Shown: positions 13,985 to 57,619, numbered from the stretch's first letter. The stretch: DNA of 64,000 nt from a virus (IMGVR_UViG_3300028886_000028:64001-128000); one strand, 5' to 3'. The notes: generated by a model not told the origin, from the sequence alone. Numbers and translations are program-made.

Positions 13985-15082
13985 ATGATTAACGAAGCAG
14001 ATATAACAAGAAGGTTTAGAAACCTTGTTTCAACAGCACAACTTGTAAAAAAGATTGCTCAACATGGGTATTTCAGTTTTAAAAATATTGTAAACGAAGC
14101 CGTTGATGAAGATTATGGCCAATATAAAATGCCAACTATTAATGATATAGAAGGAGAAACAATGACAACTATATATCGAGTGGCTTTTAAATATCAATTG
14201 GACAGTATTTTTGAATTCGGATATAATAGAGCATTTACTGGTTCAAAAGGTGGCAATATGTATGGAGCAGGAGTTTATTGCACTTATAAGTTAGAAGATA
14301 GCATACATAATGTAAAAACAAAATCAGAATACGGCGATTGTATCGTTAAAATGTTTTTAATAGGCGGCTTTGATGGGTTTATAATATTTGATGAACGTAA
14401 TGCAAGGCGTATGTATGGTAATTTTTGGCGCATTAAAGACCAATTAATTCATAGATATGGAGTTGACAGTTTCGAGGCTGAAAGAATTGAGAGACGTTGT
14501 TCTTCATCAGGAGTAGATTTATACCACGGAAGAACAGCTCCTGCCGCATATACTTTTGCGTCTGATTATAAAAATTTAATAAAAGAAAAGGGGATAAGAG
14601 GCGTCATATATAAAGGTAATAGAGACGGACATTGTGTAGTACCTTATGATTTTAGTGCAGTAATACCTTATTCTGTGTCATTTGACCAAGGTAAAACATT
14701 TAAAAAAATGTTTAAGCCGGAAACATACCAAAGAATGCATGATAGTATAGATGTGCAATTTAGATATGGTAATAGATATGCAAAGGTTTTTGAAAGTGTA
14801 AAAGGTTTTACGATGGTTCAAAAAAGAGACGGTAAATATAATTTCATTGATAATAGTGATGATAAAGAACTATCTCCAATATGGTTCGATGAAATATTAA
14901 GCAAAATAAACCCTAATAATGGAACTTTTGGCTTTAGATGGGGAGGGCATGATTTTATTGGCTCTATAATGTCGCCACAAGGCTCATCAGAAAAGGGGTG
15001 CATAATGGATGATGGACAACCTTATTGCGATTTTTCTGATTTACCAGAACTTGTTCAAGCGATAGAAAATGGAGAAGAGTAA
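13985..15082 (+). CDS. PARP-like ADP-ribosyltransferase, paralog 1
   Basis: IYRV...GGNMYGAGVYCT PARP-like signature; aligns along its length with 55041..56075. Confidence 0.65.
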   Translation: MINEADITRRFRNLVSTAQLVKKIAQHGYFSFKNIVNEAVDEDYGQYKMPTINDIEGETMTTIYRVAFKYQLDSIFEFGYNRAFTGSKGGNMYGAGVYCTYKLEDSIHNVKTKSEYGDCIVKMFLIGGFDGFIIFDERNARRMYGNFWRIKDQLIHRYGVDSFEAERIERRCSSSGVDLYHGRTAPAAYTFASDYKNLIKEKGIRGVIYKGNRDGHCVVPYDFSAVIPYSVSFDQGKTFKKMFKPETYQRMHDSIDVQFRYGNRYAKVFESVKGFTMVQKRDGKYNFIDNSDDKELSPIWFDEILSKINPNNGTFGFRWGGHDFIGSIMSPQGSSEKGCIMDDGQPYCDFSDLPELVQAIENGEE

Positions 15083-15086
15083 AAAT

Positions 15087-15113
15087 AAAAAGAGTGGTTT
15101 TTCCACTCTTTTT
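15087..15113. terminator. Bidirectional intrinsic terminator
   Basis: AAAAAGAGTGG-TTTTT-CCACTCTTTTT between convergent genes. Confidence 0.85.
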
Positions 15114-15163
15114 AAATTGTATATAGCTATTTTGTTTAATAGTTAACATGTATATGGTTCACT

Positions 15164-16690
15164 TTATTTTACCATTCTATTGAACAAATCAACAAAATCA
15201 TTTTTAATTTTTCTTTGTTCTTCAATTTGTTCTTCAGGTAAGCCATATTTTTTAATTGCCATGTTAATAATATCATCTATCGTAAATTCTTTTTTATTTT
15301 CCATTACTTCAAGTATTTTTGATTCTGAAATTTTCTTTGCCATTGTTGGTATTATTGAGTTTGTTATTGTAAATATTGACATTACATCATTATCGTTATA
15401 CGTAATATTACCACCTATACCTGTTAAAATTTTATGATTTGCTTCATTAATTCCTGAACTTATAGCGACTATCAATGTTGATACTAACGCAATTCGTTCT
15501 ATATCTTGAGGTTTTACATAACCAAGAGATTTTGCCATTACTTTAGAATATTGATAAGTTCCATCTACAATAAATTTTTCATCAGATACATTTTTTAAAG
15601 TTGGTATGTTTTTCTTTCCGCATAACCATTCTATTATTCCTTTCCTTTTTTTCATTGCGGTGCTTGAACTTGCTGATGGCTGAGTCTGTTGCTGCGTTTG
15701 AACACTTCCAATTTGGGCTTTTAATTCATCTTCTTTAGTTTGAGCAACTGAATTAATTTCACCGGTTAAATTGTTTATTAACCCCATGTCATTTGTGAAA
15801 ACATCATCTTTCGGGTCTGATGGCGGTATTGTATCTGCTACGTCATACATTATAACTTTATAAAATCCACCATTTCCTTTGTTAGCATCCATTTCAATGC
15901 TTCCAATTGTTTGTACTGAATTTTTAGTAAAATCTTTAGCATCTTTCATATCTTGGAAGCCATGTGCTCTAGCAGAATTATTCCTTGCCGCCCAAGATGT
16001 ATTTCCATAATTTGATGATTTAACAACTATGATTTTTTGCGCCCCAGGTTTAATTTGCCTGTTAAACTTTAAACGCCAAGTTTCTGGTGTTGTTACAAAA
16101 CTAGCCATAGGGTTTTGAGATAAGATGCTCATAACGTTTTTCTTACTAAGTACATGCCCATATTTTTTAGCGCATGCGACTGTAGTTTGGAAATTAAGAA
16201 GCGTTTTTCTAAAGTTAGGGTCTTGTAACTTTGTAAGCATTTCTTTCCAGTTTGAGGCTATGTTAGCATTACTATTTGCAATGTCTGCTTCTGTTGGGCA
16301 TTGTGCTATTTTATCCATCAATGAATCGCCAAATGAATCAGCTGACGTGTCGTTATATGTTCCTAAACTTTTTATGCAATTAGTTATTTTGTCAATAAAT
16401 GTTGTGCCTAATTCGTTGATTTTATCAATGTTTATTTTTAAAATAATACCTTTATCATATTTAGGATGCGCAACAGCAACCATTATATTATTAGGAATAT
16501 TCGCAGCCCATGAATTAATTAATTGTTGTCTGTCTGTTGGGTTAATTCCATCAACATATGCTTCAAGATATTCTTTTTCTTTACCTGTAACTTTACTTCT
16601 CGCTTTTTTAGCTTCGCAATGACTAATTCTTATAAAAGATTTAGATGAAGTATTATTATTAAATTTGTTAAATTTTTTTGGTAGTGCCAT
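15164..16690 (-). CDS. ArdC-N-like ssDNA-binding domain protein, paralog 1
   Basis: LSKKNVMSILSQNPMASFV....W...FNRQIKPGAQKI...F.....YDVADT matches the ArdC N-terminal pattern. Confidence 0.6.
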   Translation of the reverse strand: MALPKKFNKFNNNTSSKSFIRISHCEAKKARSKVTGKEKEYLEAYVDGINPTDRQQLINSWAANIPNNIMVAVAHPKYDKGIILKINIDKINELGTTFIDKITNCIKSLGTYNDTSADSFGDSLMDKIAQCPTEADIANSNANIASNWKEMLTKLQDPNFRKTLLNFQTTVACAKKYGHVLSKKNVMSILSQNPMASFVTTPETWRLKFNRQIKPGAQKIIVVKSSNYGNTSWAARNNSARAHGFQDMKDAKDFTKNSVQTIGSIEMDANKGNGGFYKVIMYDVADTIPPSDPKDDVFTNDMGLINNLTGEINSVAQTKEDELKAQIGSVQTQQQTQPSASSSTAMKKRKGIIEWLCGKKNIPTLKNVSDEKFIVDGTYQYSKVMAKSLGYVKPQDIERIALVSTLIVAISSGINEANHKILTGIGGNITYNDNDVMSIFTITNSIIPTMAKKISESKILEVMENKKEFTIDDIINMAIKKYGLPEEQIEEQRKIKNDFVDLFNRMVK

Positions 16691-16713
16691 AGTGCATTTT
16701 GTATTTTAATTAA

Positions 16714-16729
16714 TTATAAATATTTATAA
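16714..16729. promoter_or_regulatory. Palindromic back-to-back late promoter (TTATAAATATTTATAA)
   Basis: Perfect 16-bp palindrome with TATTTAT on both strands, between divergent genes. Confidence 0.6.
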
Positions 16730-16764
16730 ATAAAAAAAACTTTGATAATTTAAGTAATGTAATT

Positions 16765-17961
16765 ATGGTACAATATAATGATTTAACGCAGCAAGAATCT
16801 ATTAAAAATATCAGTAATTTATTGAATGAAGCTGATGTATCAAGAAGGTTTAGGAATTTAATATGCACATCAACACTTGTTAAATACATCGCTAAGTGTG
16901 GGTATGAAGGAAAATATACAGAAGAAGCGTTATATAAAACGTTAGAAAAGTGTGGTATTAAACCTAAAACTTATCGTGGAGGTAAACCATATTTCAATAG
17001 GAAAAATGCATGTAATTGCGTTGAAAAACACATATTTGATATAAGAGATATGGCGGAAAAAATGGAACAGTATAATCAACCAAAAGACGAAACTGAATGG
17101 AATGTTGGTTATGGCAGGGGCGATATGAGTGTTGCCTCTAGAGAAATGTTGGCTAACGATGGTGTGTTTGGTTCTGATGAAAATGAGTTGTATAAAACAA
17201 ACGAAAGCAAAAAAATTATCAGAATATCTGAAGATAAACTAAAATTGTTTACAATAAATGTTAAGCAATTAGAAGAAGCCTATGATTGGAATGCATGGGG
17301 TTCATTAGAAGGCGGCATCGGTAAAAGACCGTATCGTAAAACAGCAACAGCAGAAATGCCAAAGAGAAAGCCAGTAAAAAGTTTTTACGACGCAAAAACA
17401 GTTAGCCAAATAGGTAAAACATTAAGAAAGGCATGGGATTCTTTAAAATTGAGGGCAATAATAGGCTATAATAGAAATGTTACTCGTATATACGGACGTG
17501 GTAACGCTGATGCTATTTACAATTTTTTTAATGATAATGGAGAAAATATGTTTGCCAAATTTGCAGAAAAATATAACACAATTTCAAAATTAACAAGCGA
17601 TATTGAAAAGTGGGCAAAGGAAGGCGATAGAAACGGGGTAGATTATAGATTACGTGATTTGCCTAAAAATTTAGAAGAACTTGCTATTATGTTAAATGGG
17701 CTTTTTAACAAATATAAAGAATTGAAAAGAGTTCGCCAATTCAGCCCAACTTTAAATGGTAATGCAAATATGGTCGGAAATATGATAGATGGATATAAAA
17801 CAACTAATGGATTATCTGATTTAGTAATTGCAAAAAGTCCGGCAGAATTATCAAAAATAACAAGCCAACTTAATACTTGTGCCGAATACATTAGAAATAT
17901 GTGGGGAGATAACCTTGAAGGTGGAACAGTTAGGGATGGCTCAGATAGAATTGTACGTTAA
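16765..17961 (+). CDS. Hypothetical protein with NEADVSRRFRNL N-terminus and an internal leader-like motif
   Basis: N-terminus is similar to that of the 13985 gene; internal NESKKIIRISEDKL...LEEA. Confidence 0.75.
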   Translation: MVQYNDLTQQESIKNISNLLNEADVSRRFRNLICTSTLVKYIAKCGYEGKYTEEALYKTLEKCGIKPKTYRGGKPYFNRKNACNCVEKHIFDIRDMAEKMEQYNQPKDETEWNVGYGRGDMSVASREMLANDGVFGSDENELYKTNESKKIIRISEDKLKLFTINVKQLEEAYDWNAWGSLEGGIGKRPYRKTATAEMPKRKPVKSFYDAKTVSQIGKTLRKAWDSLKLRAIIGYNRNVTRIYGRGNADAIYNFFNDNGENMFAKFAEKYNTISKLTSDIEKWAKEGDRNGVDYRLRDLPKNLEELAIMLNGLFNKYKELKRVRQFSPTLNGNANMVGNMIDGYKTTNGLSDLVIAKSPAELSKITSQLNTCAEYIRNMWGDNLEGGTVRDGSDRIVR

Positions 17962-17973
17962 TAGTAAAAAACA

Positions 17974-19329
17974 ATGTTAATTCAACCTAAACCATATATG
18001 GATAGATTACGACTCAGAAATCACGCTGTTGGAACTGAGCGTAGAAGAAATATGTCCAAAATTGTTTTGGAAAATCAAACATTTTTTCCAAAACCAGTAG
18101 AGTATGTAGATATAGATAAGGCTTTTTTTGATTGGGTTGACAAAAAATTAGATGTTGTTTACAACGGCAAAAAATTACCAACATACAAATTATTTAGTAA
18201 CCAAAAATTAAGCGAATATTCTCAAACTTGGGAAAATCTTGATGAAACAGGTAATATAATAATGAACTTTAAAACAATAACACGAGAAAATAACCCTCAG
18301 CATGGAGAAAGTCAGGGTGGCAATTATAATGTTCCCGGTAATCGTGATTATCCAATGTTTTATGTTCCAATACTGCAAGAAAATGGGGAAGAAGCTTATG
18401 ACCTTTATTCAATGAAACAGCCTTTGTCGGTCAATTTTATGTATACTGTATCAGTTATATGTAACAAATATGAAATTTTAAATAAGTTTAATGAATTAAT
18501 GCATTATGAATTCAGTGCATTAGAATGCTATATTTACCCTAATGAACACCCAATGCCTATGGTTATTGAAAACATAACAGACGAGTCAGAGTATAGCATA
18601 GATGATAGGAAATATTATTCTCAATCGTATCAAATTAAACTTATGGCTTACATAATAAGGAAAGAAGACTTTAAAGTTAGTAAAGTTCCTTCTAGGTTTA
18701 TTGTTAAAATAAATGATGTTAAGTCTAAAAAGAAATACAAGAAAAAAACTTTAAATGATTGCTGGCTTGGTAATTTAAACAATTTACCACTTGAAAACGA
18801 TGATAAAAAAGGTATAGAAAATGAATTACCAAAATTAGAACGTTCGTCAGCATTTGAAAAATGCGAAAAACCTATTGATTTAGCACCACCTCATAGAACC
18901 CCATCAGTCATAGTAGAAGAAGAAGTGCCTGAATGCTGTTTTAAACATGAAGACCCATATATTCACAAAAAGATAAAACTTATTGCAGATTTTCCTTATT
19001 GCGAAGAACATACAGTTACATTTACAGCAGACACAATCATAGATATTGATGAAATAGAAACAAATAATGTTCACGATTTCATTATAAAGATTAATGGAAA
19101 AGTTGAGACTTTTGAAGATGAAGTAAAGATAAATGTAGGCGATGAAATTTTTATTAATATAAGTAGAGAAGATGAATATGGAGATTCTTCATTAACAATT
19201 GTAGGAAGCGACCCGGAAACTGTTATTGATACAAGAATAGATTATGAATCAGAATTGGACACTCCAGTATCAGAAGAAGATATATACATAAATAAAGGCA
19301 ATAATATAGCAGTTGACACGAATAAATGA
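17974..19329 (+). CDS. Tail terminator/sheath stabiliser (T4 gp15-like) with C-terminal extension
   Basis: DIDKAF...LP...E...W...D..G....TITR...P..V...Y pattern; location among the neck genes. Confidence 0.5.
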   Translation: MLIQPKPYMDRLRLRNHAVGTERRRNMSKIVLENQTFFPKPVEYVDIDKAFFDWVDKKLDVVYNGKKLPTYKLFSNQKLSEYSQTWENLDETGNIIMNFKTITRENNPQHGESQGGNYNVPGNRDYPMFYVPILQENGEEAYDLYSMKQPLSVNFMYTVSVICNKYEILNKFNELMHYEFSALECYIYPNEHPMPMVIENITDESEYSIDDRKYYSQSYQIKLMAYIIRKEDFKVSKVPSRFIVKINDVKSKKKYKKKTLNDCWLGNLNNLPLENDDKKGIENELPKLERSSAFEKCEKPIDLAPPHRTPSVIVEEEVPECCFKHEDPYIHKKIKLIADFPYCEEHTVTFTADTIIDIDEIETNNVHDFIIKINGKVETFEDEVKINVGDEIFINISREDEYGDSSLTIVGSDPETVIDTRIDYESELDTPVSEEDIYINKGNNIAVDTNK

Positions 19330-19330
19330 G

Positions 19331-19359
19331 AAATGCAGCCATAAATGGCTGCATTTTTT
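19331..19359. terminator. Intrinsic terminator, AAATGCAGCCAT family copy 1
   Basis: AAATGCAGCCAT-AA-ATGGCTGCATTTTTT. Confidence 0.85.
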
Positions 19360-19364
19360 GCTAT

Positions 19365-19724
19365 CTATATTATTGTTACTTCTGTTACTATTGTTTTTGC
19401 GCTATTAACAACAGAAGCCCTAAGTTTTATTAATTGGCTTATAAAAAATTGTTCTTTATTAGCGAAATCAGAAAGGTATGAATTGTAAATAAAATCATCA
19501 AAATTTTTTCTTTCTCCATTCCCAGTTTCAAAAACTAACTTATATTCTATAAAGTAGTCATCAACCTCAATATAATACGTAATTTGCTTTTTCAAAAATT
19601 TGTTCCATTCTTGTTTTTGAACTTTCTTTTTTGATTTTACAGCAGATAGTATATTAAGCCACAAATGCTGATTATGAGGTTTTTGAGTACTCTTTAATAA
19701 AGAATTAAAAATAATTTTTTCCAT
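19365..19724 (-). CDS. Hypothetical protein
   Basis: 119-aa ORF ending at a terminator. Confidence 0.6.
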   Translation of the reverse strand: MEKIIFNSLLKSTQKPHNQHLWLNILSAVKSKKKVQKQEWNKFLKKQITYYIEVDDYFIEYKLVFETGNGERKNFDDFIYNSYLSDFANKEQFFISQLIKLRASVVNSAKTIVTEVTII

Positions 19725-20075
19725 ATGACAACAATTAAAACTTTAATAGATATTGAAGAAATTCTTCTTAAAGCAGATAATGATTTAAGATATTCGTATT
19801 CTTTAAATGAATTGATGACAAGCGAAAAATATATAAAAGAGCTAGGAGAAATAACTAATCTTTTTTTTGCTGTTCAAATAGAATATGGTAAAATAAATGA
19901 TGAAAAAAATAATGATTATAAACAAAAATTGGTTGATTACCATAATAAATTAATTTCTGATGAACTAGATGTAAATATAGAAAAATATGTTGATTTCATC
20001 AAAAAAATTGAAAGCAAAATAAAAGATAAAGAATATTTTGATAAAGCAAAAAATATACTGGCTTTTAACAATTAA
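19725..20075 (+). CDS. Hypothetical protein
   Basis: 116-aa ORF ending within a terminator hairpin. Confidence 0.6.
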   Translation: MTTIKTLIDIEEILLKADNDLRYSYSLNELMTSEKYIKELGEITNLFFAVQIEYGKINDEKNNDYKQKLVDYHNKLISDELDVNIEKYVDFIKKIESKIKDKEYFDKAKNILAFNN

Positions 20076-20089
20076 GCCAGTATATTTTT
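20050..20089. terminator. Bidirectional terminator overlapping a gene end
   Basis: AAAATATACTGGCTT-TTAACAATT-AAGCCAGTATATTTT. Confidence 0.75.
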
Positions 20090-21182
20090 ATACAAAACCT
20101 ATTTTCCTTTGTTTCTTTTCTGAAAAATCATTTTTCTTATGAGCATTATGAGCATCGGCAAGAGTCATAGGCTCTTTTGCTTCAGGATATATTGCTTTTG
20201 TTTTTTCTAATGATAATTCTTTAAATTCGTATTTTAAAGAAAGTCTTCCTTTCCTGAGAAGCGCTTTATCAACCTTTTCCAAATCACAATTGAATGTACA
20301 AATGAATTTAATTTTCATTGATTCTGCTATTATACCATCAGTTAGATTTAAAATAGTACCAATTGATTCATTTACACTATCTTCTCTACTTGATAACAAT
20401 TTTTCACAATCTTCAAACACTATTACAGCATTTTTGTTTTCCTGTAAAAACTCCAAAAACAAACCGTCACTTATAGATTCACATACAGATGTGTCAACAA
20501 ATATAAAGTTTGTTTCCCTGTTATCGTTTATTAAAGATTTAACCAATGATGTCTTGCCGGTTCCTGGCTTTCCGTAAAGCATAATAAGTCCTGCATTTTC
20601 ATCCCTTATGATTGAATTCATTTCTTTGTAAGGAACATCATCATTATAGTTGGTATCAATATTACTTTTCCAATCGTTAAATTTACAAACAGTTGTGTCA
20701 ATTGAATACTGGCCTCTATATGCTATCCTATAACTATTTTCATCGTTAATTACATTTTTAATAACAAGAGAACCTTCAATCAAACTGCATACAGTTTCTA
20801 AATCATCACGATTTGTTGCAATGCTAATGTCATCAATCGCTCCATATCCGGAGGTGTCAGCGTTAAGTTTTAGAATAATCTTATCTCCAACTATGAATAT
20901 TTGACCTTCGTGAATTTGGAACTTAATACCATCAAATGCTGCAACTAAATTTTTAACTGTTGGTGTTAAATCAATAATGTTGTTTCTACCATCCGTCATA
21001 GGCTCTTCAGAGCTAACAACTTCAACAGCAAAACCAGTTTTTTTCTTATTGAAATGATATATATAACCAATATCATCAAAAAGATAAGAGAACAATCTGA
21101 CTTTTGTTATTCCCTCATAACTGTCTATAGACATATCGCTAATAAGTTTAATTAAGCGAATTTTAATGTGTTCATCTAACAT
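20088..21182 (-). CDS. AAA+ ATPase (BCS1-like)
   Basis: Walker A GKPGTGKT, Walker B VIVFED, SRH TFN...DKALLRKGR. Confidence 0.9.
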   Translation of the reverse strand: MLDEHIKIRLIKLISDMSIDSYEGITKVRLFSYLFDDIGYIYHFNKKKTGFAVEVVSSEEPMTDGRNNIIDLTPTVKNLVAAFDGIKFQIHEGQIFIVGDKIILKLNADTSGYGAIDDISIATNRDDLETVCSLIEGSLVIKNVINDENSYRIAYRGQYSIDTTVCKFNDWKSNIDTNYNDDVPYKEMNSIIRDENAGLIMLYGKPGTGKTSLVKSLINDNRETNFIFVDTSVCESISDGLFLEFLQENKNAVIVFEDCEKLLSSREDSVNESIGTILNLTDGIIAESMKIKFICTFNCDLEKVDKALLRKGRLSLKYEFKELSLEKTKAIYPEAKEPMTLADAHNAHKKNDFSEKKQRKIGFV

Positions 21183-21218
21183 TTAATATATTATTTGTAT
21201 TTATAGTTAAACTCGATG

Positions 21219-21226
21219 CAAATATA
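21219..21226 (-). promoter_or_regulatory. Bacteroidota-type -7 promoter element for the AAA ATPase
   Basis: TATATTTG on the minus strand. Confidence 0.65.
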
Positions 21227-21344
21227 CATAAAAAAAATATAAAAAAAAACTTTTTTATGTTAAAAAATATTAAAATATTAGATATTAAATATTTGTTTAT
21301 ACGTTTTTTTTACATTTATTAATAAATTATCTAAAACTATCAAA

Positions 21345-21351
21345 TATTTAT
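21345..21351 (+). promoter_or_regulatory. Putative late promoter TATTTAT (tail sheath)
   Basis: The motif recurs about 12-45 nt upstream of structural and leader-bearing genes. Confidence 0.55.
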
Positions 21352-21392
21352 TATTAAATAAAAATAATAAAATATAAAAATATAAAGAAATT

Positions 21393-26887: not shown

Positions 26888-27208
26888 GTGAAAAAGATTA
26901 TAAGATTGACGGAATCTGACTTGCATAGAATAATAAAAAGGTCAGTTAGCAAGATATTGAGAGAGGGCGTATTAGGAAACGACTGGCGTCAAAATGAAGA
27001 TGATGCATTAAATAACTACGAGCCATTTGAAGACCAGATTGATAGATATGAAGCTGAAACAGAATTCAGAAATCAACATAGTGATGCATTGGGTTGGAAT
27101 GATGACGAAGCAGAAGGATATGAGGAAGACCCTGATTGGCATAGAGATGATGTTAGCGGGTGGAATGGAGATATATCTGATGGCGATTTATATAGAGGCA
27201 CATGGTAA
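26888..27208 (+). CDS. Small acidic protein with leader KKIIRLTESDLHRIIKRSVSKILREG
   Basis: GTG start; own TATTTAT at 26864 and terminator at 27264. Confidence 0.75.
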   Translation: MKKIIRLTESDLHRIIKRSVSKILREGVLGNDWRQNEDDALNNYEPFEDQIDRYEAETEFRNQHSDALGWNDDEAEGYEEDPDWHRDDVSGWNGDISDGDLYRGTW

Positions 27209-27263: not shown

Positions 27264-27302
27264 AAAGGAATAAGTAAAAAATGCTTATTCCTTTATTTTT
27301 TT
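27264..27302 (+). terminator. Intrinsic terminator
   Basis: AAAGGAATAAGTA-AAAAA-TGCTTATTCCTTT followed by a T run. Confidence 0.75.
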
Positions 27303-27328
27303 TAATAAATGGCTATTTTTTAAAAAAA

Positions 27329-28756
27329 ATGAACATATTAATAGTTAATTATAATACGCAAAATCTAACTAATGCTTGTATATTAAGTGTTTTAAAAACC
27401 ACTCCTGATGTAAACATATATGTGTTTGATAATAGTGATATTGAACCTTTTAAAAATAGTTATGATAATGTAACTGTAATAGATAACACTAAAGGAGATA
27501 TTATTAATTTTGATAAAATACTTAATAGTTATGATAATAAAACAGAATATGGTGCTGAAAGTGGTTTTGGAACTTTGAAACATACTATGAGTATTGATAA
27601 ATGCTTTGATATAATAAATGATAATTTCATTCTTCTTGATTCTGATGTGTTAGTTAAAAAAGACTTGACGGAATTGTGTGACGAAGGCTGCATATATGTT
27701 GCTGATGAAGAAATAAACGGTAAATCAAAAAAAATGCGTGTATCTCCACATGTTTGTTTTATCAATGTTAATGCATGCAAAAAGTATGGAATAAGGTATT
27801 ATGATGAAAAAAGAATTGTAGGTTTATCAAAAGAATCTGATGATTATGATACTGGTTCATCATTTTATTTTGACTGTAAGGGGCATAAGTCAAAAAAAAT
27901 TACAGAAAAAAATTGGATTGTTCATTACGGTGCCGGAAGTTGGGTTAAGATGACTAAATTAAAAAAAATCAGTGAAGATGAGTGGCTAAAAAAATATATA
28001 GATTTATGGAGTGATAAAAAAAAAGTGAATGAAAGCAATGTTGACATTTTTATTTGTACTCATAAATCATTTGAACCAAAGGTTAAGTCCAGTAAATATA
28101 AAATAATTGATAGTAGATATATAACTGTTGATTTGCCATTGAAAGATGATTTTTTTAGCGAATTTTACCAATATAAATACGTTAATGATAATATTCCTCT
28201 TGAGAAATATGTTGGCTTTTGCCATTATAGAAGGTATTTCAGTTTTTTTGATGATGTGCCTGATTTAGATTATTTATTTTCAAAATGTGATATTATTATA
28301 GGCAAACCAATTAAATATGATTTTTCTATAAAAGAACAATATGAAAGATGTCATAATATAGAAGATTTATACTTGATTGGCGGTATTTTGACTGACAAAT
28401 ATCCTGAGTATTCAGATGTGTGGCATAATTTTATTAATGGTAACACATTTATACCTTATAATATGTTTATAATGAAAAGTGAAGATTTTAAAAAGTATTG
28501 TGAGTTTATTTTTACAATAATGGGAGAATATTTAAAAATTGTAGGCGTTGATATTTATAAAAGAATTGAAAATAACAAAGAACATTATTTGAAACATATT
28601 AAAGATTTACCTCAAAACAGTAAAAGCTGGTATCAATATAGAATAGGAGGGTATATAGGAGAAAGGCTAACAAATATTTTTATCATTAAAAATTTTAGTA
28701 AAGCCATGTATTATAAAGTTATAACTACTGAAGATAAATATAAAACTGACAAATAA
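27329..28756 (+). CDS. Two-domain glycosyltransferase (GT-A/GT2-like plus DUF4422-like)
   Basis: ILIVNYNT, VFDNS, LLDSDV, YDTG in the N-half; IFICTHK, VGFCHYRRYF, PYNMFIM, RIGGYIGERL in the C-half. Confidence 0.8.
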   Translation: MNILIVNYNTQNLTNACILSVLKTTPDVNIYVFDNSDIEPFKNSYDNVTVIDNTKGDIINFDKILNSYDNKTEYGAESGFGTLKHTMSIDKCFDIINDNFILLDSDVLVKKDLTELCDEGCIYVADEEINGKSKKMRVSPHVCFINVNACKKYGIRYYDEKRIVGLSKESDDYDTGSSFYFDCKGHKSKKITEKNWIVHYGAGSWVKMTKLKKISEDEWLKKYIDLWSDKKKVNESNVDIFICTHKSFEPKVKSSKYKIIDSRYITVDLPLKDDFFSEFYQYKYVNDNIPLEKYVGFCHYRRYFSFFDDVPDLDYLFSKCDIIIGKPIKYDFSIKEQYERCHNIEDLYLIGGILTDKYPEYSDVWHNFINGNTFIPYNMFIMKSEDFKKYCEFIFTIMGEYLKIVGVDIYKRIENNKEHYLKHIKDLPQNSKSWYQYRIGGYIGERLTNIFIIKNFSKAMYYKVITTEDKYKTDK

Positions 28757-48080: not shown

Positions 48081-48112
48081 AATGATATTTATATATATAA
48101 ATTATTAATATT

Positions 48113-48424
48113 ATGGCTTTTATAATTAAGAAATCTCAAAGCGTCAAACCACAGCAAAAAAACGCTAGCAGAAAACGCGAAGAAATTATTAAAAAAGAAA
48201 CAGTTAAGCCAATAGAAAAAAAAGAGGCAACTGTTGAAGAAAATAAAGACAAAAAAAAAGAAATAATTAAAGTTATGGATAAAATTTCAACTATAGAATC
48301 AATAGTAAATAACACCCCAAATAAGGATGTTAAGAGAATAAAAAGAGATAAGGGATTAATAGAAAGAACAGAAAGTTCAAAAACAATTTTAACTGAAGAT
48401 AATAAACAGCTTTTAGTGGATTAA
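48113..48424 (+). CDS. Lys/Glu-rich hypothetical late protein
   Basis: TATTTAT at 48086-48092 upstream. Confidence 0.65.
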   Translation: MAFIIKKSQSVKPQQKNASRKREEIIKKETVKPIEKKEATVEENKDKKKEIIKVMDKISTIESIVNNTPNKDVKRIKRDKGLIERTESSKTILTEDNKQLLVD

Positions 48425-48436
48425 TAGCATATAATA

Positions 48437-49267: not shown

Positions 49268-49270
49268 TAA

Positions 49271-49756
49271 ATGAAGATTATAATTAATGAAGAACAAGTA
49301 AAATTTTTAAATGAAGACATAAGCACCATTGGCGAAGTTTCTTATAATTTAAAGGAATCTATTGCTATATGGTGCTTAATGAATGATTTTAGGTTTTTTA
49401 TTCCTAACAATATTTTTGGCAGCAAAATAAGTGTTGCCAATAGCGAACAAATTAATAGGGAAATTTGTTCTGATATTATGAATGGAGAAATTATGCCGGC
49501 AGATGATGAAAAAGAACTGTTTGGGCATAATGATTATGATGATTTTGAAGATGGTGACGATGAAAGAGAAGAATTTATGAACAGCAATAAAATATATAAA
49601 GTTCAATATGGTGAAGAAGAATATTATATAGAAGTTGCTAGCGATATATATGAATATAGTGGAGAAATGATTTTAGAAAAATATATTGATAAAGAATTAG
49701 ATGATACTGTATGGTATTATGATTCTATTGACTGGTTTTTTAAAAAATTTAAATAA
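49271..49756 (+). CDS. Acidic hypothetical protein with leader MKIIINEEQVKFLNED
   Basis: Leader similar to those of 10886, 12121 and 54278. Confidence 0.7.
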   Translation: MKIIINEEQVKFLNEDISTIGEVSYNLKESIAIWCLMNDFRFFIPNNIFGSKISVANSEQINREICSDIMNGEIMPADDEKELFGHNDYDDFEDGDDEREEFMNSNKIYKVQYGEEEYYIEVASDIYEYSGEMILEKYIDKELDDTVWYYDSIDWFFKKFK

Positions 49757-49783
49757 AAGTTTTTATTTTTAACATTTTTTTTG

Positions 49784-49791
49784 TATATTTG
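49784..49791 (+). promoter_or_regulatory. Bacteroidota-type -7 promoter element for the SSB-TK-UvsX operon
   Basis: TATATTTG within TTTTTAACATTTTTTTTGTATATTTGTAA. Confidence 0.7.
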
Positions 49792-49841
49792 TAATATAGA
49801 ATTTAAGTGCCGCATGGCACATTTTTAATAATTTTTAATTT

Positions 49842-50831
49842 ATGGAAGAAAAAGTTTTAACAGCAAACATTGATGCAGATGCTGTAGCAGAGCAGTATGA
49901 AAAAGAACACACAACTACAGTTTCAACAAAAAAGAAAACAGAATTTAATGAAAAAAATTATCTTCAGGCAAGATTAAAACCTGGAGAAAAATCAAAATCT
50001 TTAACAATTAGGTTATTACCTTTTTCCACAGAAGGCGGTAGCCCTTTCAAGAAAGTTTTTATTCATACAGTTAAAGTCAACAAGGAATTAAGTCCCGGAG
50101 GTTGGCGTACTTTCGTATGCCCCACTAATAACAAGATGGGCGATAGATGCCCATTTTGTGAAGTTTCTGCTGAAGCTAAAAAATTGAGATTTGAAGCATC
50201 AACAGAAATTGAGAAGAAGAAATTTGGTGACGTTGAATTTATGAACAGGGCAAAGGCTGCATGGATTGTAAGGTGCGTTGAAAGAGGTCATGAAGATGAT
50301 GGGGTTAAGTTTTGGCTTTTTAATGATTCTAAGTCTCAAAAAGGCGTTTATAACGACATTATGAACATTTATTTTGAAAGGAAAAAAGCAGCAGAGAGAA
50401 AAGGTAAAGACTGTAATATATTTGACCTTAATGACGGCAAGGATTTAATAATTACTCTTTCAAAAGATGAAAATGGTAAAACTGTAACTAAGGTTGTTGA
50501 TGATGACGAAAGAACGCCGTTAAGTGAAAGTTATGAGCAATCAATGGCTTGGATTACTGATTCTAAGCAATGGAACGAGGTATATACAGTTAAACCATAT
50601 GAATATATGGAAATAGTTGCAAAAGATGGAGTCCCGGTTTTTGACAAAAATAAAAATAGATACGTTGATAAATTTGAAAAAATAGAAGAGGACAAAAAAG
50701 CAGCAGAAGAAGAACTAAAAGAAAATTTAACTGAGCATACAAAGGATTTTTCTGATTTCCCAAAAGAAGAGCAAAAAACAGATGATTTTGGAGGTATAAT
50801 AATTGATGGCGAAGATGATTTGCCGTTTTAA
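49842..50831 (+). CDS. Single-stranded DNA-binding protein (T4 gp32-like)
   Basis: IRLLP, H...CP......CPFC zinc ligands, VKFW, D.N.GKD, acidic tail EDDLPF. Confidence 0.85.
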   Translation: MEEKVLTANIDADAVAEQYEKEHTTTVSTKKKTEFNEKNYLQARLKPGEKSKSLTIRLLPFSTEGGSPFKKVFIHTVKVNKELSPGGWRTFVCPTNNKMGDRCPFCEVSAEAKKLRFEASTEIEKKKFGDVEFMNRAKAAWIVRCVERGHEDDGVKFWLFNDSKSQKGVYNDIMNIYFERKKAAERKGKDCNIFDLNDGKDLIITLSKDENGKTVTKVVDDDERTPLSESYEQSMAWITDSKQWNEVYTVKPYEYMEIVAKDGVPVFDKNKNRYVDKFEKIEEDKKAAEEELKENLTEHTKDFSDFPKEEQKTDDFGGIIIDGEDDLPF

Positions 50832-50847
50832 AAAAAAATCATTTTAG

Positions 50848-51453
50848 ATGAGTAAATTGTATTTCTATTTTGGGGTAATGAATTCATCAAAATCTTTAAG
50901 ATTGTTAGCCACAGCACACGATTTTGATGAAAAAAATATACCTATATTAGTATTAAAACCATCTGCCGATACAAGAGACGGGAAAAATATAATTAAGTCA
51001 AGGGCAGGGCTAGAAAGAGAATGCGTTTCAATAGATGCAGATGTCAACATATTTGATATTGTTAACGATTATAAAAAAATAGCAATGGCAACTCAAGCTA
51101 GGGGAATAAAATGGATTCTTATAGATGAATGCCAATTCTTAACAGAAGAACAAGTTGACCAATTAACAGATATTGTAGATTATCTAGACATCAATGTAAT
51201 ATGTTATGGTTTGAGAACTGATTTTAAATCGAAATTATTTCCGGCTTCAAAAAGACTTTTTGAATTAGCAGATGATATTGAAGAAATAAAGACTACATGC
51301 GATTGCGGAGAGAAAGCATCCATAAACGCTAGATTTAGTAAAGATGGTAAAATAATAACTGAAGGCAGTCAAATTTTAGTTGGAGGCGATGATTTATATC
51401 ACGCGATATGTAGAAAAGATTGGAAAAATCTAATAAGAGAAATTGTAAAATAA
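50848..51453 (+). CDS. tdk: Thymidine kinase
   Basis: G.MNSSKS, KP..DTR, IDECQF, YGLRTDF, CDCG, Y.A.CR. Confidence 0.95.
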   Translation: MSKLYFYFGVMNSSKSLRLLATAHDFDEKNIPILVLKPSADTRDGKNIIKSRAGLERECVSIDADVNIFDIVNDYKKIAMATQARGIKWILIDECQFLTEEQVDQLTDIVDYLDINVICYGLRTDFKSKLFPASKRLFELADDIEEIKTTCDCGEKASINARFSKDGKIITEGSQILVGGDDLYHAICRKDWKNLIREIVK

Positions 51454-51460
51454 AAATGTT

Positions 51461-52663
51461 ATGAAACAAGCAATAAGGAAAAAGGTTTTTACAAAACCAA
51501 GTATTGATGAATTAAAATCTGAAATGGGCTTTGAAACTAAAGCGTCAGATGAACCCATTAAGAAAAGCGAACTTAAAATGTCTAGTGCTGAGAAAGAAAC
51601 AGAATTTATAATCTTGCCTAAAGCATTTGAAAACGCACTAAAATTACCAGGAATACCTAAAGGCTACCTTACTATAGCAACAGGATGGTCTAATACCGGC
51701 AAATCTACTATTAAAAATTGTTTAATTGCTGCTTGTCAAAGAGAAGGCATTGTTCCTGTTATTTTTGAAACAGAAGGAAATTTTGATTGGAAATATGCAA
51801 TAGATTGTGGAGTAGAGGCTGAACCTATATATGGAAATGTGTTGGATGAAGAAACCGGAGAAATAACCGAACAAATTATTAATTATAAAGGCTTCTTTTA
51901 CTTTTTAGACAATAAAGCTTTAGCCGAAAAATATGGAAAAATGGATTATTCAGCAGGCAAAGAGGGTTCTAAACAAAGAAAAGAGGCTGTTTTGGAAGAT
52001 ATAGCATATTGTATAAATGATTTTCTAGATAGGCAAGAAGATGGTAGATTTCCATATCCATTATGCTTCATATGGGATAGTATAGGTTCAATTCAATCAT
52101 TTAAGTCTTACACTAGCAAAAGCGGTAATAATATGTTTGATGCAGGTGCAATTTCACAAGCATTCAATAACATTATAAATAATAGGATTCCTTCTTCAAG
52201 GAAGGTAAGTGAACCTTATACTAATACGTTTTTTTGCATTAATAAAATTTGGAATGATTCTATGAATGGAATGCCTGGAGTTCCTTCTATTGAATTAAAA
52301 GGAGGAAAAACTATGTATTATGGCGCAAGATTAATAATGCATTTAGGAGGCGTTGCAAAAGCAGCAACAAAGGTTTTAAAGGCTACGGCAAAAGGAGAAA
52401 ATTTCAATTATGGAATTGTGACTAAAATTAAGGTAACTAAAAACCAACTTCCGACTCCTTACAATGTTACCTATGAAGGTACTATGTGCTGTGTACATAA
52501 TGGAATTATTTCAGAAACTGATATTGATACTTATAAAAAAGAAAACATTAAGTTAATTCTTGAAAATTTAGAAAAACAAAGGAATAAAGAAGATAAAACA
52601 ATAGTAACAGAAATAACAGAAGCAGATTTACAATATTCTGAGGAAGAAACATTAGATGAATAA
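51461..52663 (+). CDS. RecA/UvsX-like recombinase
   Basis: PGIPKG, Walker A GWSNTGKST, FETE, WDSIG, INKIW, GGK...Y, K.TKN. Confidence 0.85.
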   Translation: MKQAIRKKVFTKPSIDELKSEMGFETKASDEPIKKSELKMSSAEKETEFIILPKAFENALKLPGIPKGYLTIATGWSNTGKSTIKNCLIAACQREGIVPVIFETEGNFDWKYAIDCGVEAEPIYGNVLDEETGEITEQIINYKGFFYFLDNKALAEKYGKMDYSAGKEGSKQRKEAVLEDIAYCINDFLDRQEDGRFPYPLCFIWDSIGSIQSFKSYTSKSGNNMFDAGAISQAFNNIINNRIPSSRKVSEPYTNTFFCINKIWNDSMNGMPGVPSIELKGGKTMYYGARLIMHLGGVAKAATKVLKATAKGENFNYGIVTKIKVTKNQLPTPYNVTYEGTMCCVHNGIISETDIDTYKKENIKLILENLEKQRNKEDKTIVTEITEADLQYSEEETLDE

Positions 52664-52688
52664 AATGGGCGGTTAATACCGCCCATTT
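52663..52688. terminator. Bidirectional terminator
   Basis: AAATGGGCGGT-TAAT-ACCGCCCATTT between convergent genes. Confidence 0.85.
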
Positions 52689-52718
52689 ACATTGAATATA
52701 AAGTTAATTCAGTGGTTT

Positions 52719-54269
52719 TTATTTTTTTTTTAAATATTTTGAATTAGCCCCTATGTTGCATAGCTTTGTTTTATTTTCTATTTTTTCTTTGCTTAATATT
52801 CTTGACCTGAGCTTTTCTATTTTTTCTCTGTGTTTATTTTCAATATTTATAATTTCATTGTTAACAGAGTTTTGCATATTTTTTTTCGTATGCTTAGTTT
52901 TCCATAAAAACCATTTAGAATTAAACAATTTCTTATCCAAATATTTTACCTTAATATCAGGTAATTTCCAAGAAACATAATTAAATGACAATTGGTCTCT
53001 GTGAGAGCCATTTTTAATTTCTTCCCACCATTTTTCCATTAATTTTATGCAGTCTTCATTGTTGTGCTTTCTAAGCAAAATGCCACTTTGAAGTAACCCA
53101 TTTTTTTTGGGAAATTTTTCTTCTTTATAACGATTTATTTGTTTTTCAGTATTTTCTTTTGTGTCTTTTTTTAAAGATATTACTGCTCTTTCTTCGTCAT
53201 AAATGCATTTTCTAGATGGATGCTCAGGAACAAAAACAGAGCAACCAATTTCGTCATTTTGTTCAATAAAATCGTTTAAATCATTTTTAATCTCTATATT
53301 ACCATCTACCCATATTGAAATATCGTAATCACTAAGTAATAAATGAGGGAGGGTTTTTACAAATCTTTGTTTTTTAACTTGTGATAGCTCATCAGTTTCA
53401 TTTGGTAATGGCTTTATTTCCCACACATCACTTTCTATTGCTAAATCATCAGTAAAACAAATGTAATCGAACCCTTCAGTTACGTATTTAGGTTCTGTTA
53501 AAGTATCATATCCTCCAGTTATACAAGTGTATACGACTTTTTTGTTTTTTTCCATAATATTTTTATTGCCATCCCAATATTTTTTATTAATTTTTAACCA
53601 ATCGTTAGGCGTGTAATTATGAACATACCCTTTTTTAACCCAAGACCCGTGTCCATAATGTAAAGCATATTCATTTATTTTAATATCTTTATGACTTAAA
53701 TTTGATGTATTTAAATAAAATGATGCACCAGTATCATATCCATCTCCACCTGGTATACAATTAAGCCCGTGCATTTTTTTTTCATTAAAATACTTTACGT
53801 TTTTTTCATTGCATTTTTCTACATTAATAAAACACAAGTAAGGTAAAACTCTTTTAATTGTAGAATTTGGCTGTGCCTTTATTTCCGCACAGTAAATGTA
53901 GTTATCATCAAATAAATCAGATATGTCTTTTTTTATTAGCACGTCAGAATCAATTAAAAGGAAATTTTGGTTTATAATATCAATACATTTTTGAACTGAT
54001 ACGCAATGTTTTGCGCTACCCCAATTATTAACTTTGCCATTGGAAAATTTTTTCTTTGGGTATTTTTCTAGCCACTTTTCGAAATCAATTATTTGCCCTT
54101 TAGTATTGTCTAAAATAGTAACATTATCAAATTTGGCAGTGAATGGGTATTTGTCGCTATTATCAAATATATAGATAATAGCGTTTTCGACAAATTTATT
54201 TATGCTCATAACCAAATGCTCAGTAAGAACAGGAGTATTGTAATGTATTATAACAATATTTTTTTTCAT
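52719..54269 (-). CDS. Two-domain glycosyltransferase (GT-A/GT2-like plus DUF616/TOD1-MUCI70-like)
   Basis: The N-half is paralogous to the 27329 gene; the C-half has VYTCITGGYD, YICFTD, SIWVDGN, HPSR.CIY.E, RDQLSFNY. Confidence 0.8.
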   Translation of the reverse strand: MKKNIVIIHYNTPVLTEHLVMSINKFVENAIIYIFDNSDKYPFTAKFDNVTILDNTKGQIIDFEKWLEKYPKKKFSNGKVNNWGSAKHCVSVQKCIDIINQNFLLIDSDVLIKKDISDLFDDNYIYCAEIKAQPNSTIKRVLPYLCFINVEKCNEKNVKYFNEKKMHGLNCIPGGDGYDTGASFYLNTSNLSHKDIKINEYALHYGHGSWVKKGYVHNYTPNDWLKINKKYWDGNKNIMEKNKKVVYTCITGGYDTLTEPKYVTEGFDYICFTDDLAIESDVWEIKPLPNETDELSQVKKQRFVKTLPHLLLSDYDISIWVDGNIEIKNDLNDFIEQNDEIGCSVFVPEHPSRKCIYDEERAVISLKKDTKENTEKQINRYKEEKFPKKNGLLQSGILLRKHNNEDCIKLMEKWWEEIKNGSHRDQLSFNYVSWKLPDIKVKYLDKKLFNSKWFLWKTKHTKKNMQNSVNNEIINIENKHREKIEKLRSRILSKEKIENKTKLCNIGANSKYLKKK

Positions 54270-54277
54270 ATGCTTAT

Positions 54278-55027
54278 TTAAAAGTCATCATCGTCAATTC
54301 CAACGAAGTTAGTTATATTATTTGTTTCCTGATTATAAAATAGTTCCGGTTTACAGTTTATTCCCTTTTCTATTTTCTTAGTTTCTTGATTTATTTCATT
54401 CATAAAGAAATTAAGTTGCCTATATTCATCCATAGGCAAAAGCTGTGAATACAAATCTTTATTTGTTTTCATAACATTAGTTATCTTCATTCTAATGTCA
54501 TCATATTTCTTTTTTTCATTTGAGAAAAGAGGATTGAAAAAGAAATCATTCCATATTGCTGGGTTTTGGAACAATTTTAAAACGGTTGTATAAAAACAAT
54601 GGAATTCATCGCCCCCTTCGCCACTATTTAAATCAGAATATTTCCAATCAGGCTTACCATTTAAAGATGATACCCATTTTGGGTCTAATAAAAGAGAATG
54701 TAAAGGCCCATTCAGTCTGTCGCCGACATATGATAAATTCCTTAAGAAGCCTCCAGAACCAAGCATGAAATTTTTAAATTTTGAAATATATATAAAATAT
54801 TCTTGGCAATTTTTATCATAACCGGTTTTTTTCCAATTGTTCCATGCCTCATCAAGTTCGTAATCTTTATATCTGTCTGTGTGAAGATTTTTAATTTTAT
54901 TTATGCTATCTATATACGGCTTATAGTTTATAGAACGTGCGCCATTGCCAAATACTGGGTAATTGGCTTCATTTAGCATTTGTAAAAAAAATACGTCAAG
55001 CTTTTGCTCATTTATTTTAATTTTCAT
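54278..55027 (-). CDS. Hypothetical protein with leader MKIKINEQKL...MLNEA
   Basis: 249 aa; ends in DDDDF. Confidence 0.7.
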   Translation of the reverse strand: MKIKINEQKLDVFFLQMLNEANYPVFGNGARSINYKPYIDSINKIKNLHTDRYKDYELDEAWNNWKKTGYDKNCQEYFIYISKFKNFMLGSGGFLRNLSYVGDRLNGPLHSLLLDPKWVSSLNGKPDWKYSDLNSGEGGDEFHCFYTTVLKLFQNPAIWNDFFFNPLFSNEKKKYDDIRMKITNVMKTNKDLYSQLLPMDEYRQLNFFMNEINQETKKIEKGINCKPELFYNQETNNITNFVGIDDDDF

Positions 55028-55040
55028 GTTGTTTTAATTT

Positions 55041-56075
55041 TTAAAAATCGTCATCTGAATCATCAAAAGAAAATGTCATTAATGAATTTGTATTTTGGTC
55101 AACAAAGGATGCTAAGTCATCCAATTCGCATAAATAAGTTCCATCTTCATAATAAACATAAAATTTTTTATTTTTATCATCAAGATGTAATATCAATCTA
55201 TCCTTACCTAGTGTCACTAAACAATTACCTTTATTGTTGAAAGTTTCAGGGGCCTCATTAAACCAAACAGGACTAATTGGGCCTTCTTCAAATGGTTTGC
55301 CTCTAAAAAGGAAATTACATTTACCGTCTTTAACAATACGTGCAAAATTATTAGTGTAATGGAAAGGCATTTCATCTAATGATTTATATAGTTCGTAATT
55401 TCGTTTTCCTAATTGCCATTTTATATCAACATCATTTTTTGCGTATTTGTCGAATGTTTTACCGCCGCTAAATGGTTGAAATGTTTTACCTCCGTCTGTA
55501 GTTATAGCAACAGGATATACGTTTTTAAAGTCTTCTATTAGGCATACATATCCATCGTTATGGCCAAAGAAAATATAGCCATTTATACAATAATACAAAC
55601 TAGGGTGATTATTTTTTAATGCATGTATTAAGTGCAATGCACATGTTGAAGTATATAAATCTCCTCTTGTATTACATACCTTATCGTAATCAATATATCT
55701 TGAATTTCTTAATTCTTGATACTGTTCAGGCGTGAAAATTTTTCTTAATTGAAAATCAATATTTGTGTTTTTATATACTTTTAACGCAATATCATTATCA
55801 TATATTATGAAGTTTCTAAGACTTTTTACTTTCATTTTAAGCAAGCATCCGCCATATGTTCCATTTGTGTTCTGATAGCCGGCCGCCAATTTATATGTGC
55901 TATACACTCCTGCGCCATACATATTGCCGCCATTAGAATCAGTAAATATCCTTTCAAGTCCCGCTTCCCCTAAACCGTCTAATGATTCTGCTTTTGTTCC
56001 ATGATATACGTAAAATCCATCATGCTCAAAATCTTCGGTTAATATTTTTTTGTATGCTTCGTTAATTAAACTCAT
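55041..56075 (-). CDS. PARP-like ADP-ribosyltransferase, paralog 2
   Basis: YHGT...G...GNMYGAGVYST canonical H-G-T / G.MYG.GVY signature; leader MSLINEAYKKILTED. Confidence 0.7.
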   Translation of the reverse strand: MSLINEAYKKILTEDFEHDGFYVYHGTKAESLDGLGEAGLERIFTDSNGGNMYGAGVYSTYKLAAGYQNTNGTYGGCLLKMKVKSLRNFIIYDNDIALKVYKNTNIDFQLRKIFTPEQYQELRNSRYIDYDKVCNTRGDLYTSTCALHLIHALKNNHPSLYYCINGYIFFGHNDGYVCLIEDFKNVYPVAITTDGGKTFQPFSGGKTFDKYAKNDVDIKWQLGKRNYELYKSLDEMPFHYTNNFARIVKDGKCNFLFRGKPFEEGPISPVWFNEAPETFNNKGNCLVTLGKDRLILHLDDKNKKFYVYYEDGTYLCELDDLASFVDQNTNSLMTFSFDDSDDDF

Positions 56076-57619
56076 TTTAATAACTTGTTAAAATTTCTTA
56101 TAAACGTTTCCTTTACATAATTTAATTCGCCTAATGCTTCTTCCTCTGTGTCCGGCATCATTTTATATTCTTCTACAGACATTCCTAATTTGTCTAACGC
56201 CCAAACAAATAAATCGCTAGCTGTGTCTTCAGCAAGTCCAACCATAATAAAGTATATGTTTTGGAAATCTGAAATAACTGAATTGAACATATTTTTATTA
56301 AAAGACCCGTCTTTCTTTTTAATGATGTTCATATTATTTGCTATTATTTGCTTAGCTTCATCCATAAACATGCCAAACCTCATAAAAATCAATGCTTTTG
56401 TTAAATCCGCATATATTTTTCTTTTATTGGCTGCGTCTCTAATTGCAGTATTCCATCCTGTATAATTTTTACCTCTCAAACGCCTTATTGTTTCAGATTG
56501 GTCAACAAGGTAAGAAATACATTTTGATAAGTTTCCTCCATTTGCAGCATATTTTTCCAATTCAGTATCTCCAACATTTGCTGCGAAATTTGCAATATTT
56601 GATAATATGGTTTTTTCATCAAATTTATTGGAGTCGTCATCAGGCTTTAATACATCAAATCTTGATGCATCATCATCTTTTTTTGCAGCGGCATTAATAT
56701 TGGTGATTGATTTATTATTCACAATTGCATAGAAATCATAATTATCTTGCATTCCCTGTATTAATTGCGTTTCACTTAAATCATAATAAGGGCCATCAAC
56801 ATTAAATTTACCGCCAGTGTTATTATTACTATCTCCATAGTTAATGTCATTCATTCCTTTTTTAACAAGTAATCTTGACATCGCGTTACTGTCATAAGTT
56901 TGTTGGTCAACACCAAACTTATTCATTGCAGCAGACTTACTACCTTTTTGCGTATTTGAAGGTCTAACTGCATAAATAGGCTTTGCCCCTTGAACAGGCT
57001 CTCTGTTAAATATTCTCCATTGTACAGCAGTAGCTAAGAATCTAGGAATGCCTTGATGACCACTTTTTAGCCATTGAGTTAAAATCATTGCATTGTTCAA
57101 TGCAGAGAAACTTATAATTTTTTCATAATCATCAGGGTCAAGTCTTCTAATCGCTCCAATAGAATTCAAATATTGCATAAAGTTTGGGTCATTAAAATTC
57201 TGTTCCAAAGCTTTCAGAATATCGTCAATATAAGCACCCCTATCTATTTGTAGTTTGCTTGATAAATCAGATGTCACAACATTATTTATTGTTTGCTCCA
57301 CTTGTGCTTCAAGATTAGGTAAATCGTTTATATCATAAACATATCCGCCAACTTGTTCAAGCGCAGATAGTATTTTTGAAAAAGCATTTTTACCATAAAT
57401 GAATTTTTTATAATCATCTACTTTAACTGCCCTGACTAGTGAATCTCCATCTACACTTAAACCCTTTGCGACACCTGAACCAGCAACAACGTTTGCTGTT
57501 TTATTATCGCAATTAAAATAGAAAAAAACCGTTGGAGTCAAAATGGCCTTTCCATTAGGGTCAATGCCTGTTTTCGTGTTTGGTGAATATTTCGAACCAA
57601 TTGTTAATAATTTTGCCAT
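56072..57619 (-). CDS. ArdC-N-like ssDNA-binding domain protein, paralog 2
   Basis: FSALNNAMILTQ...FLATAVQWRIFNREPVQGAKPI...YYDLSET; C-terminus F...FN.L.K resembles paralog 1. Confidence 0.55.
   Translation of the reverse strand: MAKLLTIGSKYSPNTKTGIDPNGKAILTPTVFFYFNCDNKTANVVAGSGVAKGLSVDGDSLVRAVKVDDYKKFIYGKNAFSKILSALEQVGGYVYDINDLPNLEAQVEQTINNVVTSDLSSKLQIDRGAYIDDILKALEQNFNDPNFMQYLNSIGAIRRLDPDDYEKIISFSALNNAMILTQWLKSGHQGIPRFLATAVQWRIFNREPVQGAKPIYAVRPSNTQKGSKSAAMNKFGVDQQTYDSNAMSRLLVKKGMNDINYGDSNNNTGGKFNVDGPYYDLSETQLIQGMQDNYDFYAIVNNKSITNINAAAKKDDDASRFDVLKPDDDSNKFDEKTILSNIANFAANVGDTELEKYAANGGNLSKCISYLVDQSETIRRLRGKNYTGWNTAIRDAANKRKIYADLTKALIFMRFGMFMDEAKQIIANNMNIIKKKDGSFNKNMFNSVISDFQNIYFIMVGLAEDTASDLFVWALDKLGMSVEEYKMMPDTEEEALGELNYVKETFIRNFNKLLK

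Follow-up and report, generated by a model that had tools for sequence, protein, structure and literature searches.

The window analysed here is a 64,000-nucleotide stretch (bases 64001-128000, counted on the 401,138-bp virus record IMGVR_UViG_3300028886_000028; 31% GC) of the genome of a bovine-gut jumbo phage, and it contains two copies of a gene pair encoding a putative ADP-ribosyltransferase (ART) and an ArdC-like protein, hereafter called the partner. An earlier examination of the DNA by itself (the sequence-only reading) had described them as a duplicated two-gene module, and the four reading frames proved to be open, with the positions and orientations then assigned (Table 1). The convergent genes of pair A are separated by an 81-bp gap, and those of pair B are co-directional with a 4-bp overlap (positions 56072-56075). 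The ART/ArdC-like pair is real, but the two-gene description omitted a third gene, located 13 bp upstream of partner B, whose product is an AEP/prim-pol-like protein as judged from its motifs. Beyond copies A and B, no further full copy of the module was found in the 401-kb genome.

Table 1. Genes of the module and one neighbouring gene, with positions in the window.
Feature	Position	Strand	Description
ART-A	13985..15082	+	365 aa; leader with V-N-E site; ART domain ~55-250, then WG-like beta repeat
ArdC-like partner A	15164..16690	-	508 aa; convergent with ART-A
ART-B	55041..56075	-	344 aa; leader (INE, ILTE); ART domain 9-198; WG-like beta domain 234-311
ArdC-like partner B	56072..57619	-	515 aa; same architecture as partner A
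Third member, AEP/prim-pol-like	57633..58451	-	272 aa; phrog_14949; has leader
Neighbour sharing the ART-A N-terminal segment	16765..17961	+	398 aa; membership in the module not shown

The AlphaFold2 model of ART-B (pLDDT 85) was compared with known structures. The results showed that the 12 top matches of its N-terminal domain were ART-superfamily proteins with Z scores of 5.5-6.0, including ParT (Z 6.0, root-mean-square deviation (rmsd) 4.2 over 126 amino acids (aa)), PARP3 (5.9), PARP1 (5.8), MbcT (5.7) and cholix (5.5). PARP10, PARP14 and PARP15 were found independently by the ART sequence profile (best E value 2e-4, for PARP10). A feature search placed the ART near an ART-PolyVal-containing cluster (0.92; 24% PF18760 in the cluster), and none of the 49 ART members matched PF18760 (ART-PolyVal) itself. 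The structural and PARP10 profile matches, with moderate but consistent scores, agree with the ART identity proposed earlier and indicate that both proteins adopt an ADP-ribosyltransferase fold of the PARP/diphtheria class. A Tpt1/KptA identity was not supported, as no such Pfam match occurred in the 49 members and the structural rank was low. ART-A and ART-B share 30% identity over 311 aa (E 1e-28), and the common motifs listed in the sequence-only reading are present in both. The ART domain is followed by a small beta domain, which gave weak WG-repeat matches in 9 of the 49 members.

Alignment of the 49 ART sequences revealed a set of invariant pocket residues, conserved down to 23% identity: Gly-x-x-Tyr-Gly-x-Gly-x-Tyr (with G54, G56 and the strand-2 Tyr, Y58, forming G-x-G-x-Y), Tyr74, Asp174 and Gly175. 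The strand-1 residue is His25 in copy B and His in most clades, Arg in the copy A clade (YRVA) and Gln in another; the YHRP clades, for which this column is misaligned in the tree alignment, keep His. Polyvalent-protein ARTs have an H-Y-D configuration (PMC5512222), and by analogy the invariant Asp174, which sits just ahead of strand 175-180 in the ART-B model, may be the Asp of this configuration. The loss of His across whole clades, together with a catalytic Glu that is not obvious, would also be expected if the ART were a pseudo- or atypical enzyme (one that binds NAD+, ADP-ribose, a signal nucleotide or nucleic acid, or that acts as an NADase), which might join the pseudo-protease of the partner in a largely non-catalytic complex serving as a sponge, decoy or ejection scaffold. 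The dead protease site of the partner (see below) points in the same direction, as do the RES-type NAD-degrading toxins, which rank level with PARPs structurally, and a cyanophage pre-ejectosome chain with an ART fold among the matches (Z 4.9). However, the invariance of the pocket residues and the retention of His in most clades argue against this explanation, which we consider quite unlikely.

Several other observations concern the ARTs. The N-terminus of ART-A is ~105 aa shorter than in close relatives, in which an N-terminal domain of ~110 aa is complete; the window copy has mostly lost it. The first 30 residues of ART-A (window 13985-14070) match the start of the 398-aa neighbour, so that the inverted partner A is placed between two genes having that N-terminal domain in common. 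A 152-aa protein encoded at genome C1:386987-387445 combines the capsid leader described below with a compact core resembling an ART (motifs G-x-G-V-I-Y and YHGNRDG; E 8e-4 with the ART profile), and appears to be a third, minimal ART-like protein of this genome, partnerless. In a relative (L005:10324-12309), a tandem double-ART gene follows the partner, with the strand-1 His only in the second domain.

Partner A comprises an alpha/beta domain (~15-130), a BHD-like ArdC-N domain (~140-315), a degenerate zincin/MPTase domain (~335-460) and a propeptide-like C-terminal tail. BLAST gave marginal similarity between partners A and B (E 9e-4 across 30 aa), and their families aligned end to end by profiles (97.9%, E 4e-13, 398 columns). 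The ArdC-N-like homology claimed in the sequence-only reading was upheld by a profile match to an annotated plasmid ArdC-like single-stranded DNA (ssDNA)-binding protein (hhalign 97.8%, E 8e-13), for which the ART and AEP profiles served as controls and were both negative. Five such ArdC-like proteins, the plasmid one and four relatives, scored E 1e-17 to 4e-10 with the partner profile. In the structural comparison, ArdC of R388 (6sna) matched residues 161-453 of the partner model (pLDDT 87) at Z 6.3 and rmsd 8.4, with 193 residues aligned over both domains, and six of the ten Atlas rows for this model were ArdcN clusters, mostly with Peptidase_M78 (TM 0.31-0.35). PF08401 (Pfam ArdcN) gave no match to the partner, and comparing profiles with R388-type ArdC yielded nothing significant, only the Firmicutes-type subfamily being matched. 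Foldseek, suggested earlier as a check, returned no PDB or BFVD match at E 0.001 or better. At E up to 0.001, 820 partner clusters (50% identity) were obtained, the weak tail of which possibly consists of ordinary ArdC proteins.

The ArdC-N core is the best-conserved region of the partner. The MPTase region alone aligns weakly (10%, E 0.003), yet keeps the register of the HExxH and glutamate helices; a Tyr-rich helix falls on the HExxH position, and HExxH was present in 0 of 201 partner homologues. The partner therefore appears to be a complete ArdC whose protease domain is dead, plus an extra N-terminal alpha/beta domain. The loss of HExxH fits the report that the anti-restriction protection by R388 ArdC does not require protease activity (PMC7213743). 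The C-terminal F..FN.[ML].K motif, listed in the sequence-only reading among those shared by the ArdC-N-like proteins, is no ArdC trait; it follows an I/L-N-E site and is propeptide-like. Residues 15-130 of partner A resemble the eIF1/SUI1 and KipI-N folds (Z 5.4-6.7, common arrangement).

Many A-type ARTs are ~600 aa long, and their C-terminal domain has a single homologue in this genome, the third gene of Table 1. Analysis of 30 sequences showed that D164-x-D166, G197-x-H199 and D238 are invariant in this family; DxD, GxH and a third Asp are in the motif order of AEP primases, suggesting that the product is an AEP/prim-pol-like member of the module. The counts of this third gene and the trees below cover 39 distinct loci, in 25 of which the AEP-like gene is adjacent or fused. 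It occurs in all five records searched, in one of them far from the pair. Both ART-AEP fusions (the 600-aa ARTs) and partner-AEP fusions (L065) were found in relatives, and P0238 is likewise a fused polypeptide. Genes beside the three-gene module in other phages, Tpt1/KptA just 3' of it in one (L082:6794-7333) and a macrodomain and an RNA-ligase-like gene near it in another (L065:9721-11837), may reflect a wider NAD/ADP-ribose or RNA-repair context.

The linkage of ART and partner, for which synteny in relatives had been suggested as a check, is conserved. Among the 52 partly redundant loci fetched via the ART, the partner adjoins it in 48, the other four being short or cut contigs, and look-ups from the partner side found the ART in 8 of 8 testable cases, including members near 20% identity; P0022 and P0263, for which there was no DNA, do not enter this count. 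Four arrangements were observed: the usual one with the partner ahead of the ART, a convergent one restricted to the small copy A clade, the reverse order with the ART first (L065), and fusion (P0276 and P0282). The flanking genes vary between loci. P0276 has no internal stop, which rules out a read-through artefact; with the partner-ART fusions, all three pairwise fusions of the module exist. The sequence-only reading had proposed functional coupling, with the partner escorting the ART as one option. The natural fusions P0276 and P0282 support the coupling, of which such an escort would be one possible form. A complex prediction for partner B and ART-B (0.23 against a mark of 0.32) was used neither for nor against binding. 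The annotated phage records searched contained no match to either protein.

In the trees of the 39 distinct loci, ARTs and partners agree in their main clades, and copy A lies far from copy B. The split between the two homologous copies is ancient: a recent duplication was rejected, since each copy belongs to a deep clade and two near-complete relatives carry one ART each. The two copies represent either an old duplication or the acquisition of a second copy. The pairwise identities of ART and partner correlate at 0.75, which was not taken as proof of co-evolution because kin share history.

Possible signals for head packaging were found in the proteins of the module. The genome, which carries 34 tRNA calls and tail sheath, gp32, RecA-like and SNF2 genes, has a T4-like head cluster at 18.5-29.5 kb, in which genes for portal, protease, scaffold and capsid were identified by eye. 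About 17 of its proteins have in common an N-terminal leader ending in I/L-x-E. Such a site lies ahead of the ART domain in 32 of 46 sequences after deduplication, against a background of ~10% per 30 residues, and 7 of 7 stand-alone AEPs also carry one; in the partners, a strict C-terminal site was found in 36 of 149 (background 5/150), and a conserved tail after it in 106 of 149 (background 9/150). KILTED is common to ART-B and the putative scaffold. The presence of I/L-x-E sites in all three proteins, like those of the phage scaffold, is suggestive of head packaging and not more than that, because the sequences had been inspected before the motif was picked and are related to one another. 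The leader IRLTESDLH..IKESV..IL.E is seen in otherwise unrelated small proteins (window 13176-13967, 26888-27208, 59720-60307 and ~14 more genes), and is probably a capsid-targeting sequence that marks the injected proteins of the phage.

A related leader on ~17 other proteins also raises the question of whether the genes are functionally coupled at all, as unrelated head-packaged proteins might be co-located merely through a common late promoter and leader; common leaders ease fusion, and shared descent alone predicts congruent trees. However, the pair persists at 15-30% identity while nearby leader genes vary, it recurs in differing genomic surroundings and in four arrangements, of which the convergent one cannot have a common promoter, and three different pairwise fusions occur. 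We therefore regard a lack of coupling as highly improbable.

The interpretation that we favour, tentatively and at somewhat less than an even chance, is that the module is a split polyvalent/Alt-like effector kit: made late and packaged in the head, it would leave the virion together with the DNA and escort the genome. The ART, the partner and the AEP-like protein would enter the prohead, where a T4-gp21-type protease would trim them at I/L-x-E sites, N-terminal in the ART and AEP and C-terminal in the partner, as the motifs suggest. After ejection, ArdC-N would bind the phage DNA at single-stranded ends, gaps or nicks, as expected from its homology, with the dead protease domain of the partner acting as a scaffold. 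The ART, given its predicted fold, could then use NAD+ to mono-ADP-ribosylate a target at the phage DNA; the likeliest target would be a nuclease or defence protein of the host, and another possible one is the DNA end. The AEP-like protein, going by its motifs, might prime or fill, leaving the genome repaired or ready for replication. Copies A (Arg-type) and B (His-type) would be old variants, probably differing in targets or activity. Such a kit would protect the phage DNA in the first minutes of infection.

Several results weigh against this interpretation. Structural Z scores are moderate, and neither Pfam nor PHROGs gave an above-cut-off match for the ARTs and partners. The strand-1 His is replaced in two clades and the canonical catalytic Glu is not evident. 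The AEP-like gene is missing from the neighbourhood in 14 of the 39 loci, its distant homologues from the Lak and pT24 phages are stand-alone proteins lacking a leader, and its assignment rests on motifs, with no Pfam, profile or PDB sequence match. The cleavage motif, as noted above, was defined after these related proteins had been inspected. An ssDNA substrate is not obvious either, because tailed phages inject double-stranded DNA.

An Alt-like host takeover is an alternative that we think rather unlikely. Here the packaged ART alone would modify host RNA polymerase or translation factors, and the partner would mainly be its chaperone or antitoxin-like inhibitor while it is synthesised late and packaged, or else an ejection carrier. 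T4 Alt offers the precedent of a gp21-processed, head-packaged ART, polyvalent-protein ARTs have been proposed to modify host proteins, and the WG-like repeats could bind a protein target; moreover, the near-obligate one-to-one linkage, usually with the partner first, resembles toxin-antitoxin order. However, this order is reversed or fused in some phages, the DNA-binding ArdC-N core is what is best conserved in the partner, and a nucleotidyltransferase-like third member fuses to both proteins, pointing to nucleic acid. In another reading, the three proteins might form a virion-delivered machine of gut jumbo phages for DNA-end protection and repair, with a sensor of the ArdC/XPC-BHD type bringing a PARP-like enzyme and a prim-pol to breaks or ends of the incoming genome. 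We think this unlikely; if true, phages would have a counterpart to the lesion sensing, ADP-ribose marking and repriming of eukaryotes, directed against restriction or CRISPR cuts.

The favoured effector kit shares features with several known systems. Mono-ART PARPs (PARP10/14/15), the RES toxins ParT and MbcT, and the anti-CRISPR ART 6kyf (AcrIF11) have the same fold, and the first two motifs are present in copy B. In contrast to them, the ARTs here have an unclear third catalytic position and no regulatory or translocation domains, are 10-24% identical to them, and are not an animal toxin. The third member shares three invariant motifs (DxD, GxH, D) in AEP order with the AEP (prim-pol) superfamily, but gave no profile or structure match to it and has no helicase or zinc domain. 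T4 Alt, an R-S-E class ART that is not known to have a fixed partner, differs from the ARTs here, which are of the PARP/diphtheria class. Alt undergoes gp21 processing at both ends followed by ejection, and the likeness to it and other T4 internal proteins (PMC9026906) consists in a phage that has a T4-like head module and encodes an ART, in short propeptides of the I/L-x-E type and in presumed co-ejection.

The partner resembles ArdC of plasmid R388/pSa (6sna, PMC7213743) in having an N domain predicted by homology to bind ssDNA, followed by a domain that probably has a metalloprotease fold, and in a squiggle-like YDxxDT motif. The partner differs in lacking HExxH and the glutamate ligand, in its extra N-terminal alpha/beta domain and C-terminal tail, in a sequence nearer to the Firmicutes-type ArdcN+M78 subfamily than to R388 ArdC, and in being encoded by a lytic-type jumbo phage. 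Polyvalent proteins have ArdC-N, MPTase and H-Y-D ART domains among their most frequent parts, and delivery with DNA and recruitment of effectors to DNA by ArdC-N have been proposed for them (Iyer et al. 2017, PMC5512222). Similar domain types occur here, but in the present module they are mostly separate genes with occasional fusions, the MPTase site is dead, an AEP-like member and T4-type maturation sites are present, and the ART has WG-like repeats and falls below the ART-PolyVal Pfam model. The statement of the sequence-only reading that no such system had been described was thus too strong: the parts and their general logic are already known from polyvalent proteins (PMC5512222), ArdC and the head-packaged ART Alt. 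The particular combination (dead-protease ArdC, H/R/Q-variant ART, AEP-like protein, T4-type sites and fusions of all pairs) did not turn up in the literature searched. That ArdC-N serves as a header carrying effectors to incoming DNA has been proposed, as have targets for H-Y-D phage ARTs, in both cases without a tested example; since this family offers small, separately encoded and tightly linked parts, natural fusions of all pairs and two active-site variants in one genome, both become directly testable. The conserved, unannotated module of uncultured rumen jumbo phages is a candidate new counter-defence system.

The best-holding sequencing runs were bovine gut metagenomes, the top two of which are possibly the source of the genome. 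From this habitat and from the distant homologues in Lak and pT24 phages, we infer a Bacteroidota host. Short near-identical contigs in one rumen metatranscriptome cover partner B and the AEP-like gene; they were left out as expression evidence, as neighbouring genes are covered too and DNA carry-over is possible. A tRNA with a CTA anticodon (amber suppressor-like) lies at genome C1:270569-270646, although code 11 gives ~90% coding density. Two glycosyltransferase-like genes (window 27281-28756 and 52719-54269), the latter within the same minus-strand run as module B, have in common an N-terminal domain of ~300 aa with 38% identity and differ in their C-terminal domains (DUF4422; TOD1/MUCI70).

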